From a candidate division WS6 bacterium GW2011_GWF2_39_15 (lineage in GTDB: Bacteria; Patescibacteriota; Dojkabacteria; SC72), in assembly GCA_000993565.1 (NCBI GenBank), contig LBWK01000001.1, forward strand, positions 428,208-492,207: a DNA stretch of 64,000 nt. Reading direction: 5' to 3'. The translations under genes were made by a program, and so were the position numbers. Below, piece by piece: positions 3,756-51,991 of this stretch. The notes under the pieces are model-generated. The model had not been told where the DNA came from and did no database searches. It worked only from the letters and a program-made list of their open reading frames with translations. Each line of letters opens with the position of its first letter. Positions within the stretch are counted from its first letter, which is position 1.

Positions 3756-3853
3756 AGTTGATTATATGATATTAAACAGAAACTACCAATACACTCTATT
3801 TACAGTAAAAATAGAGCGATGTATAATAGCCTTATAGTATTAAATATGTAAAT

Positions 3854-5724: not shown

Positions 5725-5801
5725 TGGTAGGCCGAACGGGAATCGAACCCGTAACTGGAGTTTTGGAGACCCCTGTTTTAACCAATTCAAACTACCGACC
5801 C
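5725..5801 (-). tRNA. tRNA-Trp (anticodon CCA), CCA-3' encoded
   Basis: Cloverleaf read by hand: acceptor GGGTCGG/TCGGCCT (3 GU wobbles), D GTTT/AAAC, anticodon stem GGGGT/ACTCC loop CTCCAAA, T-loop TTCGATT; lies just downstream of trpS. Confidence 0.75.
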
Positions 5802-5892: not shown

Positions 5893-7407
5893 TTATTCTT
5901 TCTCAATCAGCTTATTTATCCCTACCATGCTCTGAAGCTTCTCAAGAGTTTGTACAACAACCTTTCTCGCCTTTTCTGTCCCTGAAATAAGTATATCCTT
6001 CGCTTCATCCGGTCTTTCTTCATAGTATTTTCTCTTCTCTCGTATAGGCTCAAGGAAGGTGTTAAGGGCAGCAAAAAGCTTCTCTTTGACTTCTATATCC
6101 CCTACTTTCCCTTGTGTGTATCTTTCTTTAAGATCGTTAATCTCGTCCTTATTTGTATTAAACGCATCATGATATATAAAGACGGGATTTCCTTCTACAG
6201 TGCCTTTATCACTGGCCTTAATCCTATTAGGATCGGTATACATAGACATCACTTTCTTCTTTAAAGTTTCTTCATCATCAGAGAGAAGTATGGCATTATG
6301 ACCGCTCTTACTCATTTTCTCTTTACCATCCGTACCAACCAGCCTCGCAACCCTTCCAACTCGACCCTCTGGCATTACAAACAGATTTCCATATGCCTTA
6401 TTAAAGTCTTTTGCTATCTCCCTTGCCTGCTCAATCACAGGAAGCTGGTCTTCTCCAACCGGCACTAAACTGGCGTTAAACTGGAGAATATCTGCAGCCT
6501 GTAGAATCGGGTAACTTATAAAGCCTAAACTCGGGTCTAACTTTTTATACCTCACCTCATCCTTTACAGATGGATTTCTCAACGCTCTTGAGTGCTTTAC
6601 CATATTAAGGAAGAAACTATACAAAACATGCGTTTCTGGGATACCTGATTCAAGGTAAATTGTAGACTTGTTAGGATCTATTCCTACAGCCAGATTATCA
6701 AGGAAGACATCATATACATTCTGGTTTATCAACTCTGATTTATCAAAGTAGTTGGCATATGCGTGATTATTTGCCAAAAGAATATATGTTTCGTATTCAT
6801 CCTGCAATTTAACCCTGTTCTCCAATGTTCCAACGTAATGTCCTATATGCAGTTTCCCGCTAGGAGTATCACCTGTGAGAATTCTTTTTTTACTTACAAC
6901 CCCGGCCTGTCTCTTGAGGTTAGGCTCTGTAATTTCAGCCACTTTATACTTACCAAGCACTTTAAGCAGGTCCTCAACTTTGATTTTAAGGCCGTAACCC
7001 TCCCTGCCAATTCCACATATAACCTTCTCGTTATCCATAACCATACTATCAATATAGATCTTTACCGGAAACTTTTCCTGAAGCTCTCCGAGTAGTGCTG
7101 GTGAGACTAAACCTGTTTCAAATCCTAATTTTTCTAAGTCATTTTCCTCTGCAAAGTTAAGACTCCTGCTCCCGCTTAATTTCTTCACCTCCTGAGTTCT
7201 TACATTCCGATCGTCCCTTCTAAGAATAACAATGTACTCATCCCTCTCGTTCTTAAAGAAAAGTGTTGACATACCATCTCCGTACGTCATAACTGTAACC
7301 CTCACGAGTTCATCAACCGACCTGTTTTTTGCGGCTGTCTGATCTACCTCCTCATACTTTATTCCAGTACTATTCAGTTTTTCTACTATTCTTTTATATG
7401 TATCCAT
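5893..7407 (-). CDS. trpS: tryptophanyl-tRNA synthetase with ~170-aa N-terminal extension
   Basis: Class I motifs PSGKLHIGHYVG (HIGH) and KMSKS; core ~335 aa typical of TrpRS; cognate tRNA-Trp adjacent; T-box leader upstream. N-terminal domain of unknown type (possibly editing/YbaK-like, unverified). Confidence 0.8.
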   Translation of the reverse strand: MDTYKRIVEKLNSTGIKYEEVDQTAAKNRSVDELVRVTVMTYGDGMSTLFFKNERDEYIVILRRDDRNVRTQEVKKLSGSRSLNFAEENDLEKLGFETGLVSPALLGELQEKFPVKIYIDSMVMDNEKVICGIGREGYGLKIKVEDLLKVLGKYKVAEITEPNLKRQAGVVSKKRILTGDTPSGKLHIGHYVGTLENRVKLQDEYETYILLANNHAYANYFDKSELINQNVYDVFLDNLAVGIDPNKSTIYLESGIPETHVLYSFFLNMVKHSRALRNPSVKDEVRYKKLDPSLGFISYPILQAADILQFNASLVPVGEDQLPVIEQAREIAKDFNKAYGNLFVMPEGRVGRVARLVGTDGKEKMSKSGHNAILLSDDEETLKKKVMSMYTDPNRIKASDKGTVEGNPVFIYHDAFNTNKDEINDLKERYTQGKVGDIEVKEKLFAALNTFLEPIREKRKYYEERPDEAKDILISGTEKARKVVVQTLEKLQSMVGINKLIEKE

Positions 7408-7419
7408 CACTTATGGTAT

Positions 7420-7700
7420 ATAAAATAAAAATCCCCATATAGATAGACTAACATATTTTCAAAGTTAATCTAACTACATGGGGACGACATATACATCGTG
7501 GTACCACCCCACTTCATCCCGCTAACCCATAAAAAGAGAATCTCTATAAGTTGGCGGACCTTATCGACTTTATCCAAACATCGATTTGAACTTTCACGCT
7601 GTTCCTACGGCTCTCATACTACTCTACTAACTACAAGCTAGCAGGGTTTCTGTTCGCTGCTCCCGGACCCATTCTCCCGATCAATGCATTTAAATATTCA
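7420..7700 (-). promoter_or_regulatory. T-box riboswitch leader of trpS
   Basis: Minus strand: TGGTATAAT extended -10 (rc of 7711-7719); T-box sequence AAGUGGGGUGGUACCACG (rc of 7497-7514; 15/18 to consensus AAUUAGGGUGGNACCGCG); antiterminator GGGG/CCCC with 7-nt bulge UGGUACC and A2 helix ACGAU/GUCGU; overlapping terminator UCCCCAUGUAG...CUAUAUGGGGA + UUUUUAUUUU (7420-7485); UGG-A in candidate specifier loop. Confidence 0.6.
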
Positions 7701-16178: not shown

Positions 16179-16250
16179 AATCGGTAGGTTCTATCGTAGC
16201 ATCAAGTTTTGTATTCTTACAGAAAGACTTATAAATGTAAAGAGGGAATA

Positions 16251-16324
16251 TCGGGGTGACTCGACTCGAACGAGCGACCTCTACGTCCCGAACGTAGCGT
16301 TCTAGCCATCTGAACTACACCCCG
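16251..16324 (-). tRNA. tRNA-Pro (anticodon CGG)
   Basis: Acceptor CGGGGTG/CACCCCG, anticodon stem CTACG/CGTAG loop TTCGGGA, T-loop TTCGAGT, discriminator A. Confidence 0.8.
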
Positions 16325-16381
16325 ACTGGATAATTATACTCTATAATTAAGGAGTATATAATAATTGAATACGTTCTAATG

Positions 16382-18970
16382 CTACATCTTGTCTATACTT
16401 TCTATTCCCAGCAGGTTCAATCCGCTCTTGAGTACAGTTGTAACAGCTTCCACAAGAACCAATCTTGCCTCTTTTTCCTCTGCTCTATCAGCATTTAATA
16501 CCTGATATTTTGAATAAAAGTTATTAAAGAGATTTGCGAGCTCAAAAACATACGTACATATTAAATGCGAAGCAAAATTTGTCTGAGCACTAAGTACAAC
16601 CTTCGGAAACTCTATAAGCTTTTTAATTATAGCCTGCTCTTCAGGACTTTCTAATACACTCCCTTTTAATTCCTTCGAGTATTCCCCTGCCTTCTTTAAA
16701 ATAGAATTGGCTCTTGCGTATGTATAAAGGATATATGGACCGGAATACCCACTCATATTAAGAAAGGTGTCTGGATTATAGTTAACATCCTTATGGAACT
16801 CATGAGACAGTATGCCGAATTTCAAAGCTGCAATAGCAACTTTTTTAGCTATAGAATTGGTATCCTCCTCGCTAAATTCCTCCTTATCTTTAATCCTCTC
16901 TTTGGATACAGCTATCAGCTCGTTAAGCATATCTTCGTAAGAAAAGCTCTTTCCCATTCTGGCAGAGGTCTTCTTCCCCTCGAATAACAGCCAGCCGAAA
17001 CCGATATGCGTATACCTGCCTTTGAACTTTGGATCGATAAGTTCCAAGGCTTTGATCATATTCTTAAAATAATCAACCTGCTCTACTGAAGTAGTAATGA
17101 TAGAAAGGTACAGATCCGGGTACTCTTCAAACTTTTTAAAAGCCAGTCCAAGATCTTTTGCACCATATGTAGGAGCCCCGTCAGAAGTGATAAAGGCAAA
17201 CTTCTTTAATCCGTATTCTTCAGCATCGAATATTACAGCCCCTTTATCCTCTTTAAACACTTTTCCAATGTTTTCTTTCACTAGTTTAATCCCTTTCTCC
17301 ATATTTTCGCTTTCCGGATATTGCCTGTCATATACCACACCAAGCTCTGCAAATACATGATCCTGATACTGGATACTCAAGTCTCTGGTATATTGATAAA
17401 GCTCATTAATCCGGTCATTTTCCTTGCTGTACAAAAGCTTATTGATTTTTCTAACCTCTTCCTCCACTTCTTTATCCTTATCCATACTTAGATTTCCGAA
17501 GACATAACAATCGCTGAAGAACTTCGCAACCTTCTTTATCCCTTCTTTTTCCTTAATTTCATCTAAATAATCCTTTACCATCTCCATATCTTTATCACCA
17601 AGCTCAAAGATCTTGCTCTCTGGACTTACCTTCATAATTACACCCCATAATGCTTTGGCGATCATTAACCCTACATCACCAAAGTAGTTGGCCTTAATTA
17701 CTTCATAGCCTGAATATTCAAAAAGCCTTGTAAGCGAGAGACCTGTAATACCACTTTTGATATGCCCCATTGTAAGCTCCTTATGTGTATTTGGCTGTCC
17801 GAACTCAATCATCACTTTCTTACCGTCCCCAGTTTGATTCTTTCCCCAACTCTCATCCACACTTAGTAACTGACCCTTAATTGAATTCTTATTTACATAC
17901 ATATTAACAAACCCCGGCATAACAGATTCAGCCTTAACTACAATCCCTCCAAGCTTCCCAGCAATCCCTTTTGCTACCTCAATAGGAGATTTTCCTAATT
18001 TTCCTGCTACCCGCATTGCTACAGTACTTGTATAATCTCCATACTTCTTATCTTTAACCGGTGAGACATCAATTAAGTGCGCCTCAAGAGATTTATTAAG
18101 AGAGATATAAAGCTGATTTTGAATCTCACTTTCTATACAATCTGCTTCGTATATAAATTGTTTATCCTTTTTTCCCTCATTACTCTTTGATGATTTCTCC
18201 TTGGAACTATTGCCAACCTTAGGTCTCACGACCCCTTCTATATCTCTAGTCTTATAGTCTACTTCTACAAACTCATGCTCTTTATCCAGAACGATAACTT
18301 CTCCTTCTCCGCCGAAATGTGATGTGATGAAAGCAACAAACTCATTAGCCGCTTTGATAATATTCTTTTCATTGATCCCTTTAAACCCGTCCATTATAAA
18401 ATAGCCATCTTGGGAATCCTCTGTAAGCTTAGTCCTTTCACATTGTCTCCAGTTAAGAGAAAGTGTTGATACATCATAATCATCTTCCCAGATTAGATCT
18501 CCTTGTTTTGGTGATTTTCCCTTCTCTTCCCCAATTCCTAGCCAATGTTCATCTCCTTTAGCCAATTTCAAAACAAAATCCCCGTACACAGTACTTAGAT
18601 CCTCTCCTCCGAAAGGAGTTATGTAGTTAATGCTAAATGAGTTATATAGATCAACAATCGGGTTGATTCTTGGGAGATTACCTCCTTCTATTACTCTAGA
18701 TGCTAATGCGAAGTGGGTAGGTTTAACCTTTTTAGGATTTGCACCAAATTTTCTAAATGCTTCAAAATATACTTTTATATACTCGTTATTTTCAATATCC
18801 TCTTTGCTCTTGAATCTTTCCAAGAAGTCTTTTTGGGAGGCCTCTTTAAACATTGAGACCAATTTTTCATTCTCACTGTTCCAATGATTACTGAAATCCC
18901 TAATTACAGGAATAGCGATGAAAATATTAGGGAATTTTTCAAAAACCTCTCTCTCTATCTTAAACTTCAT
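16382..18970 (-). CDS. argS: arginyl-tRNA synthetase fused to N-terminal B3/4 (PheT-like) domain
   Basis: 862 aa; residues ~80-130 (LPRINPIVDLYNSFSINYITPFGGEDL) resemble B3/4 tRNA-binding/editing domain; ArgRS N-domain (YGDYTSTVAMRVAGKLGKSPIEVAK), HIGH-like QPNTHKELTMGH, DALR-type C-terminus. Confidence 0.75.
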   Translation of the reverse strand: MKFKIEREVFEKFPNIFIAIPVIRDFSNHWNSENEKLVSMFKEASQKDFLERFKSKEDIENNEYIKVYFEAFRKFGANPKKVKPTHFALASRVIEGGNLPRINPIVDLYNSFSINYITPFGGEDLSTVYGDFVLKLAKGDEHWLGIGEEKGKSPKQGDLIWEDDYDVSTLSLNWRQCERTKLTEDSQDGYFIMDGFKGINEKNIIKAANEFVAFITSHFGGEGEVIVLDKEHEFVEVDYKTRDIEGVVRPKVGNSSKEKSSKSNEGKKDKQFIYEADCIESEIQNQLYISLNKSLEAHLIDVSPVKDKKYGDYTSTVAMRVAGKLGKSPIEVAKGIAGKLGGIVVKAESVMPGFVNMYVNKNSIKGQLLSVDESWGKNQTGDGKKVMIEFGQPNTHKELTMGHIKSGITGLSLTRLFEYSGYEVIKANYFGDVGLMIAKALWGVIMKVSPESKIFELGDKDMEMVKDYLDEIKEKEGIKKVAKFFSDCYVFGNLSMDKDKEVEEEVRKINKLLYSKENDRINELYQYTRDLSIQYQDHVFAELGVVYDRQYPESENMEKGIKLVKENIGKVFKEDKGAVIFDAEEYGLKKFAFITSDGAPTYGAKDLGLAFKKFEEYPDLYLSIITTSVEQVDYFKNMIKALELIDPKFKGRYTHIGFGWLLFEGKKTSARMGKSFSYEDMLNELIAVSKERIKDKEEFSEEDTNSIAKKVAIAALKFGILSHEFHKDVNYNPDTFLNMSGYSGPYILYTYARANSILKKAGEYSKELKGSVLESPEEQAIIKKLIEFPKVVLSAQTNFASHLICTYVFELANLFNNFYSKYQVLNADRAEEKEARLVLVEAVTTVLKSGLNLLGIESIDKM

Positions 18971-18993
18971 TGTTATACCTGTTTAATTAGATG

Positions 18994-19067
18994 CGCGCCC
19001 GGAAGGAGTCGAACCCACAACCCCTAGTTCCGAAGACTAGTGCTCTATCCAGTTGAGCTACGGGCGC
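18994..19067 (-). tRNA. tRNA-Arg (anticodon TCG)
   Basis: Acceptor GCGCCCG/CGGGCGC, anticodon stem CTAGT/ACTAG loop CTTCGGA; T-stem has one T-T mismatch. Confidence 0.7.
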
Positions 19068-19085
19068 ATCCCGCTACTTGTAGTT

Positions 19086-19162
19086 TGGCGTACCTGAACG
19101 GAATCGAACCGTTAACCTTTGGTTCCGCAAACCAATGCTCTATCCAATTGAGCTACAGGTAC
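19086..19162 (-). tRNA. tRNA-Arg (anticodon GCG), CCA encoded
   Basis: Acceptor GTACCTG/CAGGTAC, anticodon stem TTGGT/ACCAA loop TTGCGGA, T-arm AACGG-TTCGATT-CCGTT. Confidence 0.7.
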
Positions 19163-19225
19163 ATAATAGAGAAGAATGGGATATTTGTTAAATTGCACTG
19201 CCGCCTGCTATATGACAAAGCTAGA

Positions 19226-19301
19226 TGGCGTGCCCGGCCGGAGTCGAACCGACAACCTACTACTTAGAAGGCAGTTGCTCTTCCAGTTGAGCTACGGGCA
19301 C
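19226..19301 (-). tRNA. tRNA-Arg (anticodon TCT), CCA encoded
   Basis: Acceptor GTGCCCG/CGGGCAC, anticodon loop CTTCTAA, T-arm GTCGG-TTCGACT-CCGGC. Confidence 0.75.
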
Positions 19302-19319
19302 ACGACCCACGTATTATAT

Positions 19320-19616
19320 AACAAAAAACCCCATCCTTAAACCACATATACCTGTGATCTAGGGACGGGGTTACCGTGGTGCCACCCTGGTTCACTAACT
19401 ATATAATGAGATAGTTAGCCTTAATAGATTACCCTACTTTACTCGCCATCCATAATCTTATTATAGATTAGCGGTATTTCTTCGGATATATGATAGAAGC
19501 TCTATTCCAATACTTAAGATGCCGGTCTTCCACTATCACCTGCTCGCTAGTACCATAACAAAGTATTGTACTTTTCTTCCTGAGAGAATTATAGCTAAAA
19601 GTAACAAAGTTTACAA
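19320..19616 (-). promoter_or_regulatory. T-box riboswitch leader (Arg) preceding tRNA-Arg x3 + argS
   Basis: Minus strand: promoter TTGTAA-17-TATAAT (rc 19588-19616); T-box sequence AGGGUGGCACCACGG (rc 19374-19388), bulge UGGC matches discriminator G of the Arg tRNAs; A2 helix ACGG-UAAC-CCGU; terminator AACCCCGUCC...GGAUGGGGUU + UUUUUU (19320-19371); AGA flanked by A's in candidate specifier loop (CCGAAGAAAUACC). Confidence 0.5.
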
Positions 19617-19818
19617 TAAACTTTAAGATCCCTTTACCCAGACCTCCCCCATAAAGACCTCCTGCCGGTGAAACACCCCTTTATTTTAACAACCTTGAAC
19701 CATCTTAAAGCAATAAACGGAGAGCTATAGAGCTTAAATAAGAGTGGTGCAGGGCTAGATCCCGCGGTTTACAATGACTGAACGGATTTTCAAAGGTGCG
19801 TGAAACAACAGCCCAAGG

Positions 19819-47849: not shown

Positions 47850-48359
47850 GCATAAGCAATCAGATTCTCTAATTACTCATGCCTGACAACCTCTATTACT
47901 AGAGATATCAGGACTTTAAATTCATAAAGAGCTATTAAGAGTGTTTACACACTCAAAACTGAATAGAAATTTGAAGCATTTCAAAAAGTTTTTTGATCTA
48001 TTAGTACACCTTGGCTCAATACATTGCTGTACTTACACCTAGTGCCTATCAACGTAGTAGTCTACTACGGATCTTCCGTTGCGCGAACGCAACAAGCAAA
48101 TCTAATCTTGGGACAGGCTTCGCACTTATATGCTTTCAGTGCTTATCCCTAAATAACATAGCTACCCAGCAATGCTCTTGGTAGAACAGCTGGTACACCA
48201 GAGGTTTACCTCGCCCCGATCCTTTCGTACTAGGGGCCACTTCCCTCAAATTTGCTGCGCCCATACCGGATAGAGACCGACCTGGCTCACGACGGTCTGA
48301 ACCCAGCTCACGTGCCACTTTAATGGACGAACAGTCCAACCCTTGGGAGCTTATCCACT

Positions 48360-48395
<36 letters not shown>

Positions 48396-48803
48396 GGTGC
48401 CGTCAATATGAACTATCGGGCACCACCAGCCTGTTATCCCCGGGGTAACTTATATCCGTTAAACAATGGCGATTCCACATTCTGCCAAAGGGTCACTTAA
48501 ACCTGCTTTCGCAACTGCTCGGGATGTCTCCCTCACAGTAAAGCCACCTTATGCTTATGTACTCTTCATCCGATTTCCATCCGGATTGAGGTGACCTTTG
48601 TACGCTTGCGTTACTCTTTTGCAAGCAACCGCCCCAGTCAAACTGCCCGCCGTGCACTGTTTCCTTGCCGGGTAACGGCAAAGGTGAGAAATTAAACGCC
48701 AATAGGGTGGTATTACACTGGTGACTCCCCAAATCCTGACGAATCTGGTTCAAAGTCTCCCACCTATGCTCTACAACTAGAGCCTAATTTCAATGCAAAG
48801 CTG

Positions 48804-48834
<31 letters not shown>

Positions 48835-48960
48835 GTACGGGTAGGCCGCATCTTCACAGCCATTTCAATTTCGCCGAGCACGCTGTCGAGACAGTGAGAG
48901 AGTCGTTACGCCTTTCATGCAAGCCACTAATTAAGTGGCGAGGTATTACGCTACCTTAGG

Positions 48961-49745
48961 CATTCCTGTTACTTAGATCTAAGTATCTATTTACTTAGAT
49001 GACCTAATTTCTTAGGCGGATATACTTTTGTATATCTCTCTACATTACTGTAGAGGTCGGACTATATCTTCTTCCACATATTTTTGTAAATGGAAGTCTA
49101 ACGTTTAGCCTCTGAGGATTCTTGCAACTAATTCTTTCTTTTCCCACTTTTTACCTTTTCCCATCTGATTCATCTCATATGAATAATCTAACAACTTCAG
49201 CATTCCTTTCGGACTAAGATGTTGCTTATTCTTCATCATCACTATTGCATCTCTAAAAATAGAGAATGCTTTTAGTTTTGTTTTCAACGGATATGTTTCG
49301 AAGAATGGGATAACTCTTTCATAACACGGATTAATTCCGGATATTTGGTATGTATAAACACTATATGGGGAAGTTTTTCGATGTATACTTCCGCAACCAA
49401 ATACTTTCATAATCTCTTCTAGAAACCATTTATTCTTTTCATGTTGATAAACATAAAAAGCTGGTTCTATTCTAAAACCGTATTTAACATTAATACGATT
49501 TTTAATATTAAGACAGAAACTCCCTTCTCCATCTACAAATCCTGAGATAAACCATTTAGAACTTTCGGTATTAGGGATATTAGTTACAAATCTTTCCTGC
49601 TGATTGTCCAAAAACATGAAGTTTTTACTTAATAAATTAAGTATCCATGCCGTTTAGGATGTCCCAGCATACAGTTAGATTTTACAACGGCCCGATATCT
49701 GGTAGCAAAACCAAGTAATAATTATCATTACTACTTAGTAGATAT
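48961..49745 (-). mobile_element. group I intron in 23S rRNA (domain IV, helix 69 3' side)
   Basis: Exon junction reconstructed by alignment to E. coli: ...ACTATAACGGT | intron | CCTAAGGTAGCG...; upstream exon ends in U, intron ends in G (plus c48961); AT-rich insert containing HE ORF. Confidence 0.6.
49105..49617 (-). CDS. LAGLIDADG homing endonuclease (single-motif, intron-encoded)
   Basis: 170 aa; ISGFVDGEGSF LAGLIDADG motif; lies entirely within 23S intron. Confidence 0.8.
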   Translation of the reverse strand: MFLDNQQERFVTNIPNTESSKWFISGFVDGEGSFCLNIKNRINVKYGFRIEPAFYVYQHEKNKWFLEEIMKVFGCGSIHRKTSPYSVYTYQISGINPCYERVIPFFETYPLKTKLKAFSIFRDAIVMMKNKQHLSPKGMLKLLDYSYEMNQMGKGKKWEKKELVARILRG

Positions 49746-51115
49746 TTATCTACCACCGTTATAGTTACAGCCGCCATTGACCAGGGCTTCAGTCATCCGC
49801 TTTTCAACAATTGACACACCGAAGTGTGGCAAGAGTCGATGACAAACTTCCTTAACCTTCTGGCATTGGGCAGGCGTCAGCACTTATACATCTTCTTACG
49901 AATTTGCAAGCGCCTGTAGTTTTGGTAACTAGTCGCTCTCTCCTATTCTGTGCCACTGTAATCACTGCCTGAAAAAATCTGACAGTGTACAGTCCCCCTT
50001 CTCGCTAACTTACGGGGTGAATTTGCCGAATTCCTTAACAACGCATCACTCGTACGTCTTAGTGCATTTACACCAATCTACCGGTGTCGGTTTGCGGTAC
50101 GATTACCATAAATATTGCTCAAGACCGAAGTCTTAAGCGCTAGAAGCTTTTCCTGGAAGATTAATCTGACAGATCGGATTCCTTGCGGTCACCTTTCCAT
50201 AACAGTTCGTGTTCATCCCGCAAGCGGGAAACGTTTTCGTGGATTTACCTGCGAAAACTAACTTGCTGTTTAGACCCCAATCCTTAAGGGGCCTGCCTTT
50301 TCAATCCTCTCACTCCATTGCTAAATATAGTAGTACAGGAATATTAACCTGTTGTCCGTCACCTACGCCTTTCGGCCTCGGCTTAGGATCGACTTACCCA
50401 TGGGCGACTGACGTAGCCATGGAAACCTTAGATATTCGACGAGCAGGGTTTTCACCTGCTTTGCGCTACTCATCCATGCATTCTCACTTCCATACGCTCC
50501 AGCAACTCCTTACGGGCTGCCTTCACTGCTTTTTTTAGCCTGCTAAGGCCAACATGTATGGAACGCTCCTCTACCAAATGTATTAACCGAAGTTAATACA
50601 CATTCGCAGCTTCGGAATTTACCTTTAGCCCCGTTATATCTTAAGCGCAGAATCTCTAGACTAGTAAGCTTTTACGCACTTTTTAAAGGATGGCTGCCTC
50701 TGAGCCAACCTCCTAGCTGTCTGAGAAACTCCACTTCCTTTGCCACTGAGGTAAATTTAGGGTCCTTATCTGACGATCTGGGCTGTTGCCCTTTCGAACG
50801 TATTAGCTTAGCCCAATAGTTCTAACTGCCACAATGTACATTCCGGTATTCGGAGTTTTACAGAACATGGTACTCTTTCGAGCCCAAGATTCTATAAGTG
50901 CTCTACCCCCAGAATTTAAATTGCAACGCTAGCCCAAAAGCTATTTCGAGGAGAACCAGCTATTACCAGGTTCGTTTGGCATATTACCGCTAACCACGTG
51001 TCATCACATAATTTTGTAACATTAAAGTGTTCGAGCCTCCATCCCACTTTCGTGGGACTTCACTCTGCACGAGGTTAGATCACCTGGATTCGGGTCCAGT
51101 GCATACGACTGAATT

Positions 51116-51146
<31 letters not shown>

Positions 51147-51264
51147 CCACCGTTTCCGGTTTAACCTTGCCGTACACAACTGACTCGCATGGTCATTCTT
51201 CAATAGGCACGCCATTATCCTAGCAAGCTAGGACTCTGACTGTTTGTAAGCATATGGTTTCAGT

Positions 51265-51308
<44 letters not shown>

Positions 51309-51991
51309 TCGGAACTTGTTCACTATCGGTCGCAAAAAAGTATTTAGTCTTACCAAGTGGTTTTGGCAGATTCCCACAGATTTTCACTTATTCCGTGGTA
51401 CTTAAGAATACTAAAAGAAAGACACATACCTTTAATGTACACAGCTTTCATGTTCTATGGCCGACCTTTCCAGATCTATTCCATTAGATATGTATTTTGT
51501 AACTTTCCGACCAAATTGCTGTTTGATCTATTAGTATCTTACAACTCCAATATTGCACGAACAGCAACCTACGAGTTTGTCTTTCCAATCGTCGCAACGC
51601 GACTCATGAATTAACGCCCTCTTACACAATATTGGTTTAGACTCTTCCCGTTTCGCTCGCCACTACTAAGGGAATAAACTTATGTTCTTTTTTCCTGTTG
51701 GTACTGAGAGGTTTCACTTCCCAACGTTCTCTCCTCTACAGATATGTATTCTCTGTAGGGTAACTGGGTATGACCCCAGCTGGATTACTCCATTCGGAAA
51801 TCTCCGGGTTATAACGATTGTTTGACATCTCCCCGAAGCATATCGCAGTCTACTACGTCCTTCATCGACTTTTTGCGCCAAGGCATCCACCATATGCCCG
51901 TAGCTTTACTTTTTGAAATGGTTCATTTCTATTCAGTTTTTAAAGTGCAAACACTATATTTTCGTAATCTATTTCTAGACTACATATCTTG

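Follow-up and report, generated by a model that had tools for sequence, protein, structure and literature searches.

An arginine-specific T-box leader before three tRNA-Arg genes and argS in a Dojkabacteria-like genome, with a candidate second promoter nested in its terminator

The stretch of DNA analysed here (the window) comprises 64,000 nucleotides of contig LBWK01000001.1 of the candidate division WS6 bacterium GW2011_GWF2_39_15 (assembly GCA_000993565.1, positions 428,208 to 492,207), and its minus strand carries, in this order, a promoter (P1), a roughly 255-nt leader, a long hairpin with a tail of six U residues (U6), three tRNA-Arg genes and argS, the gene for arginyl-tRNA synthetase (ArgRS), as read from the sequence. 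Judged by its anatomy, the K-turn excepted, the leader is a class I (transcriptional) T-box specific for tRNA-Arg(UCU). An earlier note, made from the letters of the window alone, had proposed that a T-box gates the three tRNA-Arg genes together with argS; an arginine-specific, terminating T-box that matches the downstream tRNAs was recovered, whereas gating by the T-box alone is made doubtful by a conserved second promoter candidate (P2). The features of the locus, all on the minus strand and in window coordinates, are as follows.

19616..19588, minus strand: promoter P1, with -35 TTGTAA at 19616..19611, a 17-nt spacer and -10 TATAAT at 19593..19588 (promoter scan, 10 of 12 positions matched)
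19580..19495, minus strand: Stem I (cmscan alignment and helix search across loci)
19490..19431, minus strand: Stem II region, marked by the motifs GAAGAAA ... AAGUA and enlarged in this genome by an insert of about 36 nt (alignments)
19420..19394, minus strand: Stem III hairpin (folds, with compensatory changes)
19388..19361, minus strand: antiterminator AGGG[UGGCACC]ACGG-UAACC-CCGUCCCU (sequence and cmscan alignment; -7.1 kcal/mol)
19372..19327, minus strand: intrinsic terminator, a 19-bp hairpin, with U6 at 19328..19323 (folds; pairs covary)
19341..19336 and 19318..19313, minus strand: candidate promoter P2, with -35 TTTAAG and -10 TATAAT, the U-tract falling within the 17-nt spacer between them (read from sequence)
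19301..19226, minus strand: tRNA-Arg(UCU), the predicted T-box ligand, with discriminator G and encoded CCA (ARAGORN; Rfam tRNA model, 65.6 bits)
19162..19086, minus strand: tRNA-Arg(GCG), with discriminator G and encoded CCA (ARAGORN, Rfam)
19067..18993, minus strand: tRNA-Arg(UCG), with discriminator G followed by CAU, the CCA not being encoded (ARAGORN, Rfam)
18970..16382, minus strand: argS, 862 amino acids, a B3_4 domain fused to ArgRS (Pfam scan, homologues)

The leader matched the Rfam T-box model RF00230 over its full length (model positions 1-219) at 19593..19358 of the minus strand, with 73.8 bits and E values of 6.6e-16 when 1 kb was scanned and 4.2e-14 for the 64-kb window as a whole, so that the model search suggested beforehand returned a significant match, though one below the Rfam gathering score of 93 bits. 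At the gathering thresholds the window yields only rRNAs and tRNAs and no T-box is reported, and the match surfaces with E-value thresholds; standard annotation would therefore not report the leader. The TTGTAA-17-TATAAT promoter previously noticed was located at P1, where TTGTA and TATAAT are invariant among variable flanks in the window and in three related loci (L001, L002 and L019). Transcription from P1 is inferred to start near 19581, and the leader, from this start to the U-tract, is longer than the roughly 200 nt first estimated.

Stem I consists of a lower helix (GGAAG/CUUCU) and an upper helix (CAAUACUU/AAGUAUUG), between which lies the specifier loop with AAAAGUA on its 5' side and GAAU-AGA-G on its 3' side. 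The specifier codon AGA (19503..19501), followed by the purine G at 19500, can pair with the anticodon UCU of the tRNA that comes first downstream; the same codon is the one most used for arginine, with 47% of the arginine codons in the 21 long open reading frames (ORFs) of the window. The AG bulge AGCGA (19548..19544) and the distal loop GGUGAUAGUGGAAGACC (about 19540..19524) align to the consensus AGAGA and GgUUGGUGaaA with high posterior probability in cmscan, a likeness at the level of sequence. Inspection of Stem I, as the earlier note had advised, thus brought out the arginine specifier, the AG bulge and the distal loop but no K-turn (GA motif) at the stem base, where UCUCAG / UAU stands in place of the consensus gaUGAa / gGA; the -10 box of P1 ends just 8 nt before the lower helix of Stem I and leaves no room for it, and this K-turn-less start is common to all related loci. 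A Stem II helix is present and conserved, with GAAGAAA invariant in six leaders, and the Stem IIA/B pseudoknot and the F-box were aligned by cmscan at low posterior probability only.

The T-box sequence AGGGUGGCACCACGG occupies 19388..19374 and displays, as had been described, a 7-nt bulge UGGCACC and helix A2 ACGG/CCGU. Residues UGGC of the bulge (19384..19381) are complementary to the GCCA 3' end of tRNA-Arg, and the variable position of UGGNACC is C, facing a discriminator G in all three tRNAs. The earlier claim that all three tRNA-Arg genes end in GCCA applies to the first two, which encode it, and not to the third, in which G is followed by CAU. The competing terminator with its U6 also lies where it had been expected. 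Folding gave -33.6 kcal/mol for the terminator against -7.1 kcal/mol for the antiterminator, and both structures use CCGUCCCU, so they are mutually exclusive; such a balance of energies is the usual one for T-boxes.

Related loci numbering 52 (designated by L numbers) were collected, and the layout was compared among twelve Dojkabacteria-like loci, the window counted, with the following result.

P1, T-box, tRNA-Arg(TCT), tRNA-Arg(GCG), tRNA-Arg(TCG) and argS: window, L001, L002, L019 and L052 (RF00230, 73.8-80.1 bits)
T-box directly before argS, no tRNAs: L021, L022, L048 and L050 (RF00230, 39-51 bits)
tRNAs and argS, no T-box: L049 (no RF00230 match at E <= 0.01)
Neither T-box nor tRNAs: L051
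Layout cut off, the contigs ending just 5' of tRNA-Arg(TCG): L018 and L020

The four other loci with both T-box and tRNAs have leaders scoring 76-80 bits and come from assemblies whose ArgRS is about 50% identical, so that the layout has been kept across about 50% protein divergence; the ArgRS of L052 is without the B3_4 domain. Across the relatives as a whole, RF00230 scores range from 30 to 80 bits, and many Microgenomates loci have a homologous leader ahead of argS. The helices of Stem I vary in sequence yet keep their pairing (GGAAG/CUUCU, AAAG/CUUU, GAAAG/CUUUC, UAAGG/CCUUA and GUGUCACAA/UUGUGAUGU), and a helix search placed the specifier AGA-G in the same loop in six loci, between compensating flanking helices. 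Of the 38 pairs in the consensus that RNAalifold derived from six leaders, 22 show a double change. Among the leaders that directly precede argS, the specifier is AGA in L021 and CGC in L022, as read by eye from the leader sequence. The recurrence of leader and layout in four independent assemblies, together with the compensatory stem changes, indicates that the leader is more than a chance resemblance.

In a neighbour-joining tree of the ArgRS core, the loci with T-box and tRNAs fall into two groups with bootstrap values of 100 each, and the nodes that join these groups have values of 11-13; with such deep nodes the tree is compatible both with a single origin of the tRNA-containing layout and with an ancestral layout that was lost elsewhere. 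A scan of metagenome DNA with the conserved T-box/terminator core GGGTGGCACCACGGTAANNCCGTCCCTA gave no match, and a protein-based metagenome scan returned only more distant Microgenomates loci, none of which has tRNAs between T-box and argS.

The tRNA genes begin 21 nt after the U-tract, in agreement with the spacing of about 20 nt and the order UCU, GCG, UCG noted before, and argS follows; the spacers within the unit are 63, 18 and 22 nt, the last separating the third tRNA from the argS start codon. A terminator scan of limited sensitivity found no terminator-like site between the T-box U-tract and argS, and with none seen there, any transcript that reads through from P1 has to extend over all three tRNA genes and argS; from this arrangement we infer that tRNAs and synthetase are co-transcribed. 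The argS product is a complete ArgRS, in which an N-terminal B3_4 domain is followed by Arg_tRNA_synt_N, tRNA-synt_1d and DALR_1 (Pfam). Its closest homologues are B3_4-ArgRS fusions of Candidatus Dojkabacteria and other Microgenomates-type bacteria (Woesebacteria, Roizmanbacteria, Shapirobacteria, Amesbacteria), with best identities of 61% to a JGI metagenome protein and 53% to a protein of a named Dojkabacteria metagenome-assembled genome.

The candidate promoter P2 lies in the DNA of the terminator itself, its -35 box sitting in the 3' arm of the hairpin. Its TATAAT stands exactly 11 nt 5' of the mature end of tRNA-Arg(UCU) in all five loci with T-box and tRNAs, and likewise in L049, which has no T-box. 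The stretch that begins at the T-box, takes in the terminator and U-tract and ends with TTATATAATA is near-invariant in the five loci, TTATATAATA itself being without any change, after which the next 10 nt vary freely before the tRNA begins; the near-invariance would be explained by a double constraint, in which RNA hairpin and promoter DNA share the same bases. The same geometry is found elsewhere in the window, where a TATAAT ending 7-16 nt upstream accompanies 5 of 12 tRNA genes as against 0.8% of random positions (the hexamer occurring at 7.7e-4 per position). These five are Pro, Arg-TCT, Ala-CGC and both Met genes, all first or sole in their cluster; no internal gene of a tRNA cluster among the 12 shows the motif in this interval.

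In L049 the order GTTTAA-17-TATAAT-11 nt-tRNA-Arg(TCT) can be aligned base for base with P2 and is followed by the three tRNAs and argS, while the G-rich terminator arm is replaced by unrelated sequence. Conversely, among five T-box leaders that are not followed by tRNAs (L021, L022, L048, L050 and a leader before trpS in the window, described below), TATAAT occurs after the U-tract in L022 only, and there farther downstream than P2. By these comparisons the candidate P2 tracks the tRNAs and not the terminator; it is very probably a working promoter of the tRNA cluster, and it probably drives argS as well, since the ATG of argS lies just 22 nt beyond the last tRNA, with no terminator seen in between. 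An independent promoter and 5' end at each tRNA, with no read-through from the leader, had been named in the earlier note as the result that would speak against its proposal; a promoter candidate of this kind was found for the first tRNA only, and it does not speak against read-through from P1.

Other promoter-like sites between the tRNAs, such as TTAACA-17-TATTAT at 19191..19163, which abuts tRNA-Arg(GCG), were rejected as operon promoters, as they are not conserved among the loci and as transcription from the cited site would start inside a tRNA. Upstream of P1, in the 200 nt that separate it from a DegT-family aminotransferase gene, TGTTTCAC occurs twice (19675..19668 and 19807..19800, minus strand), and it is also present 5' of P1 in L019, L052 and L002; it was rejected as a meaningful element, its count in the window being 4 against 1.8 expected, which is not significant.

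The reading that we favour, with somewhat better than even confidence, is a dual-promoter model in which P2 supplies basal transcription and the T-box, in response to uncharged tRNA-Arg(UCU), lets transcription from P1 read through. With charged tRNA-Arg(UCU) the 19-bp terminator would form and transcripts from P1 would end at 19328..19323. Uncharged tRNA-Arg(UCU) would pair through its anticodon with the AGA specifier and through its GCCA end with the UGGC bulge, stabilising the weak antiterminator, and RNA polymerase would then proceed across the three tRNA genes into argS, the tRNAs presumably being freed from the read-through transcript by RNase P and 3' processing. P2, a sigma-70-type promoter nested in the DNA of the terminator and U-tract, would start about 5 nt before tRNA-Arg(UCU) and give the tRNAs and argS a basal level of expression that does not depend on the T-box, so that the T-box would act as an inducible boost to the operon and not as its only gate. 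That the T-box is still in use is suggested by P1, specifier, bulge and terminator being intact in five diverged lineages, and by the leader having vanished wholly in L049, the sole lineage that lost the T-box.

Several observations weigh against parts of this model. The score of the leader stays under the gathering cut-off (73.8 against 93 bits), and the K-turn is missing. The -35 box of P2 is weak (3 of 6 matches) and overlaps the terminator arm, so that its conservation is confounded with that of the RNA structure. The terminator scan that found nothing downstream also missed the T-box terminator itself, which makes its null result weak evidence for an uninterrupted unit. Finally, the T-box could hardly influence argS if P2 were strong, yet the strong conservation of P1 and the T-box in five lineages points to a substantial contribution from P1.

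The same conservation also speaks for the reading that survives best beside it, namely that P2 is inactive or negligible and that the three tRNA-Arg genes, together with argS, are transcribed solely from P1 by way of the T-box. In that case uncharged tRNA-Arg(UCU) would bring about its own production, a positive feedback balanced by the co-induced ArgRS. Only 21 nt, with no terminator between, lead from the U-tract to the first tRNA, and the -35 box of P1 is the better one (TTGTAA, 4 of 6 matches, against TTTAAG, 3 of 6); moreover, in the T-box regulons of Firmicutes, essential synthetase genes are routinely expressed by T-box read-through alone. Such a reading, however, has to accommodate a perfect TATAAT at a fixed 11 nt, in the geometry of the other tRNA promoters of this genome, as well as L049, which evidently runs the tRNAs and argS from a P2-type promoter alone. 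A gate that requires tRNA-Arg(UCU) to make tRNA-Arg(UCU) would also possess an absorbing off state should the pool run low. We regard it as unlikely, if worth keeping in view. A milder form, in which P2 is minor and three of the cell's four tRNA-Arg genes, that of the T-box ligand included, are gated mainly by the T-box, is, taken by itself, likewise unlikely.

It is improbable that the T-box is vestigial, the tRNA cluster having been inserted with its own promoter so that the operon runs from P2 only and the leader regulates nothing. The presence of P2, and of L049 as an example of an operon workable without a T-box, would agree with this, but P1, specifier, bulge and terminator are intact in five lineages at about 50% ArgRS identity, with compensated stems, and L049 keeps no recognisable trace of a T-box, as would be expected if a leader no longer under selection decays. 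That the leader resembles a T-box by chance alone, for which the sub-threshold score, the absent K-turn and the unclear Stem IIA/B pseudoknot could be cited, is hardly credible against an E value of 4e-14 for the whole window, all core motifs in the right order, an arginine specifier and a discriminator match that fit the adjacent tRNAs and argS, and covarying stems in homologous leaders that precede argS in many Microgenomates loci.

The B3_4 domain of this ArgRS belongs to PF03483, with a fold of the editing type of the beta subunit of phenylalanyl-tRNA synthetase, and covers residues 1-280. The fusion is widespread in Microgenomates-type genomes, is not found in some close relatives (P0010 and P0017), and a B3_4 N-terminus is present on AspRS-like proteins as well (P0096-P0098). 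The spacer between tRNA-Arg(UCU) and tRNA-Arg(GCG) (19225..19163) and its equivalents in L001, L002 and L019 are variable except for a common YCCCAT motif, with the instances ATATCCCATTC, TTTTCCCATG, GTTCCCATTA and CCTCCCATTC; the motif may be a processing signal. A tRNA-Pro(CGG) gene lies 3' of argS in several of these genomes, at 16325..16250 (minus strand) in the window, at 2797..2872 in L018 and at 3819..3892 in L052. The gene in the window has its own TATAAT 7 nt upstream, and those in L018 and L052 begin 5 nt past the argS stop codon, a gap which implies co-transcription with argS there. The 23S rRNA gene of the window (47980..51915, minus strand) measures 3936 nt against a model of 2925 nt and contains several large insertions, which fits a candidate-phyla host; one insertion (49038..49194) matches the group I intron model RF00028 below threshold (37.8 bits, cut-off 50).

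Further T-box leaders were observed in the window and in the related loci. A second sub-threshold T-box of the window, at 7693..7477 of the minus strand (RF00230, 42.9 bits, E 4e-6), has its own TATAAT, a bulge UGGUACC and a long terminator, and precedes an ORF at 7410..5893 (minus strand) for a 505-residue fusion of a YbaK-type editing domain with tryptophanyl-tRNA synthetase (TIGR00233, 267.7 bits), that is, trpS; its specifier was not readable, Stem I being too poorly aligned by cmscan. A tRNA-Trp gene (5801..5725, minus strand) lies 91 nt past this fusion gene. In other Microgenomates loci, T-box leaders stand before argH about 3 kb upstream of argS (L010, about 1043; L013, 840-1030; L014, about 721), the product of L013 being identified as argH (TIGR00838, 358 bits) and those of L010 and L014 being visibly homologous to it, and in L019 a T-box at 7342-7494 (35.9 bits) precedes proS. 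The argH, trpS and proS leaders of these loci all score below the gathering cut-off. The argH leaders suggest an arginine T-box regulon in candidate-phyla bacteria.

T-box regulation accordingly appears to reach the candidate phyla radiation, in Dojkabacteria-like and wider Microgenomates-type genomes, where it stands before argS, argH, trpS and proS; as every such leader scores under the Rfam gathering cut-off, standard annotation would miss them all. T-boxes have been listed only in Firmicutes, Actinobacteria, Chloroflexi, Deinococcus-Thermus and a few Proteobacteria (Wels 2008), so the suspicion that this one lies outside the usual phyla holds for the present host. No description of T-boxes in candidate phyla (Patescibacteria, Dojkabacteria) or before tRNA genes was found in the literature searched, which was itself incomplete, and tRNA genes as T-box targets are not mentioned in the paper on the TBDB database, in Wels 2008 or in the 2020 WIREs review. 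The locus can therefore be described as a known mechanism in what appears to be a new phylum-level host, with a new and conserved operon architecture in which the genes of the predicted ligand lie inside the controlled unit and a candidate promoter is nested in the terminator. Its dual-promoter layout could be used to study the balance between tRNA and synthetase supply in minimal genomes. Were the nested P2 weak, the locus would be a riboswitch controlling the synthesis of its own ligand; and if the T-box were indeed the main gate, it would constitute an autocatalytic module of tRNA and synthetase that a riboswitch controls and that Dojkabacteria-like bacteria have conserved, and, as far as the literature search showed, the first case in which a riboswitch governs the gene that encodes its RNA ligand.

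Compared with known systems, the leader resembles the class I T-boxes of Firmicutes (RF00230; Bacillus subtilis tyrS and glyQS; Bacillus and Clostridium argS) in its S-turn specifier loop with codon and purine, its AG bulge and distal loop, its Stems II and III, and its 7-nt UGGNACC bulge in a weak antiterminator that competes with a strong terminator and U-tract, and the regulated gene is likewise the cognate aminoacyl-tRNA synthetase. It differs from them in its candidate-phyla host (Dojkabacteria-like, Microgenomates-related) and sub-gathering score, in having no K-turn, so that the leader starts right at the lower helix of Stem I, in the three tRNA genes, the predicted ligand among them, between terminator and synthetase gene, and in the candidate promoter nested in the DNA of the terminator and U-tract. 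The T-box-argS loci without tRNAs (L021, L022, L048 and L050 of sister lineages, and the Shapirobacteria-like L007, L011, L015, L027, L034 and L036) share a homologous arginine T-box leader and a B3_4-ArgRS gene but have neither tRNA genes nor a conserved TATAAT between terminator and argS, and some are compact, with the T-box motif just 80-100 nt before the start codon. A tRNA cluster directly 5' of a translation gene is also known from the tufB operon of Escherichia coli (thrU-tyrU-glyT-thrT-tufB), where the tRNA genes are co-transcribed upstream of a translation-factor gene with no terminator between them; in both cases the tRNAs would be cut from a common transcript. The tufB operon, however, lacks an upstream riboswitch and carries tRNAs not cognate to the encoded protein, whereas here the encoded synthetase has the tRNAs as its substrates, one of them being the ligand predicted for the switch upstream.

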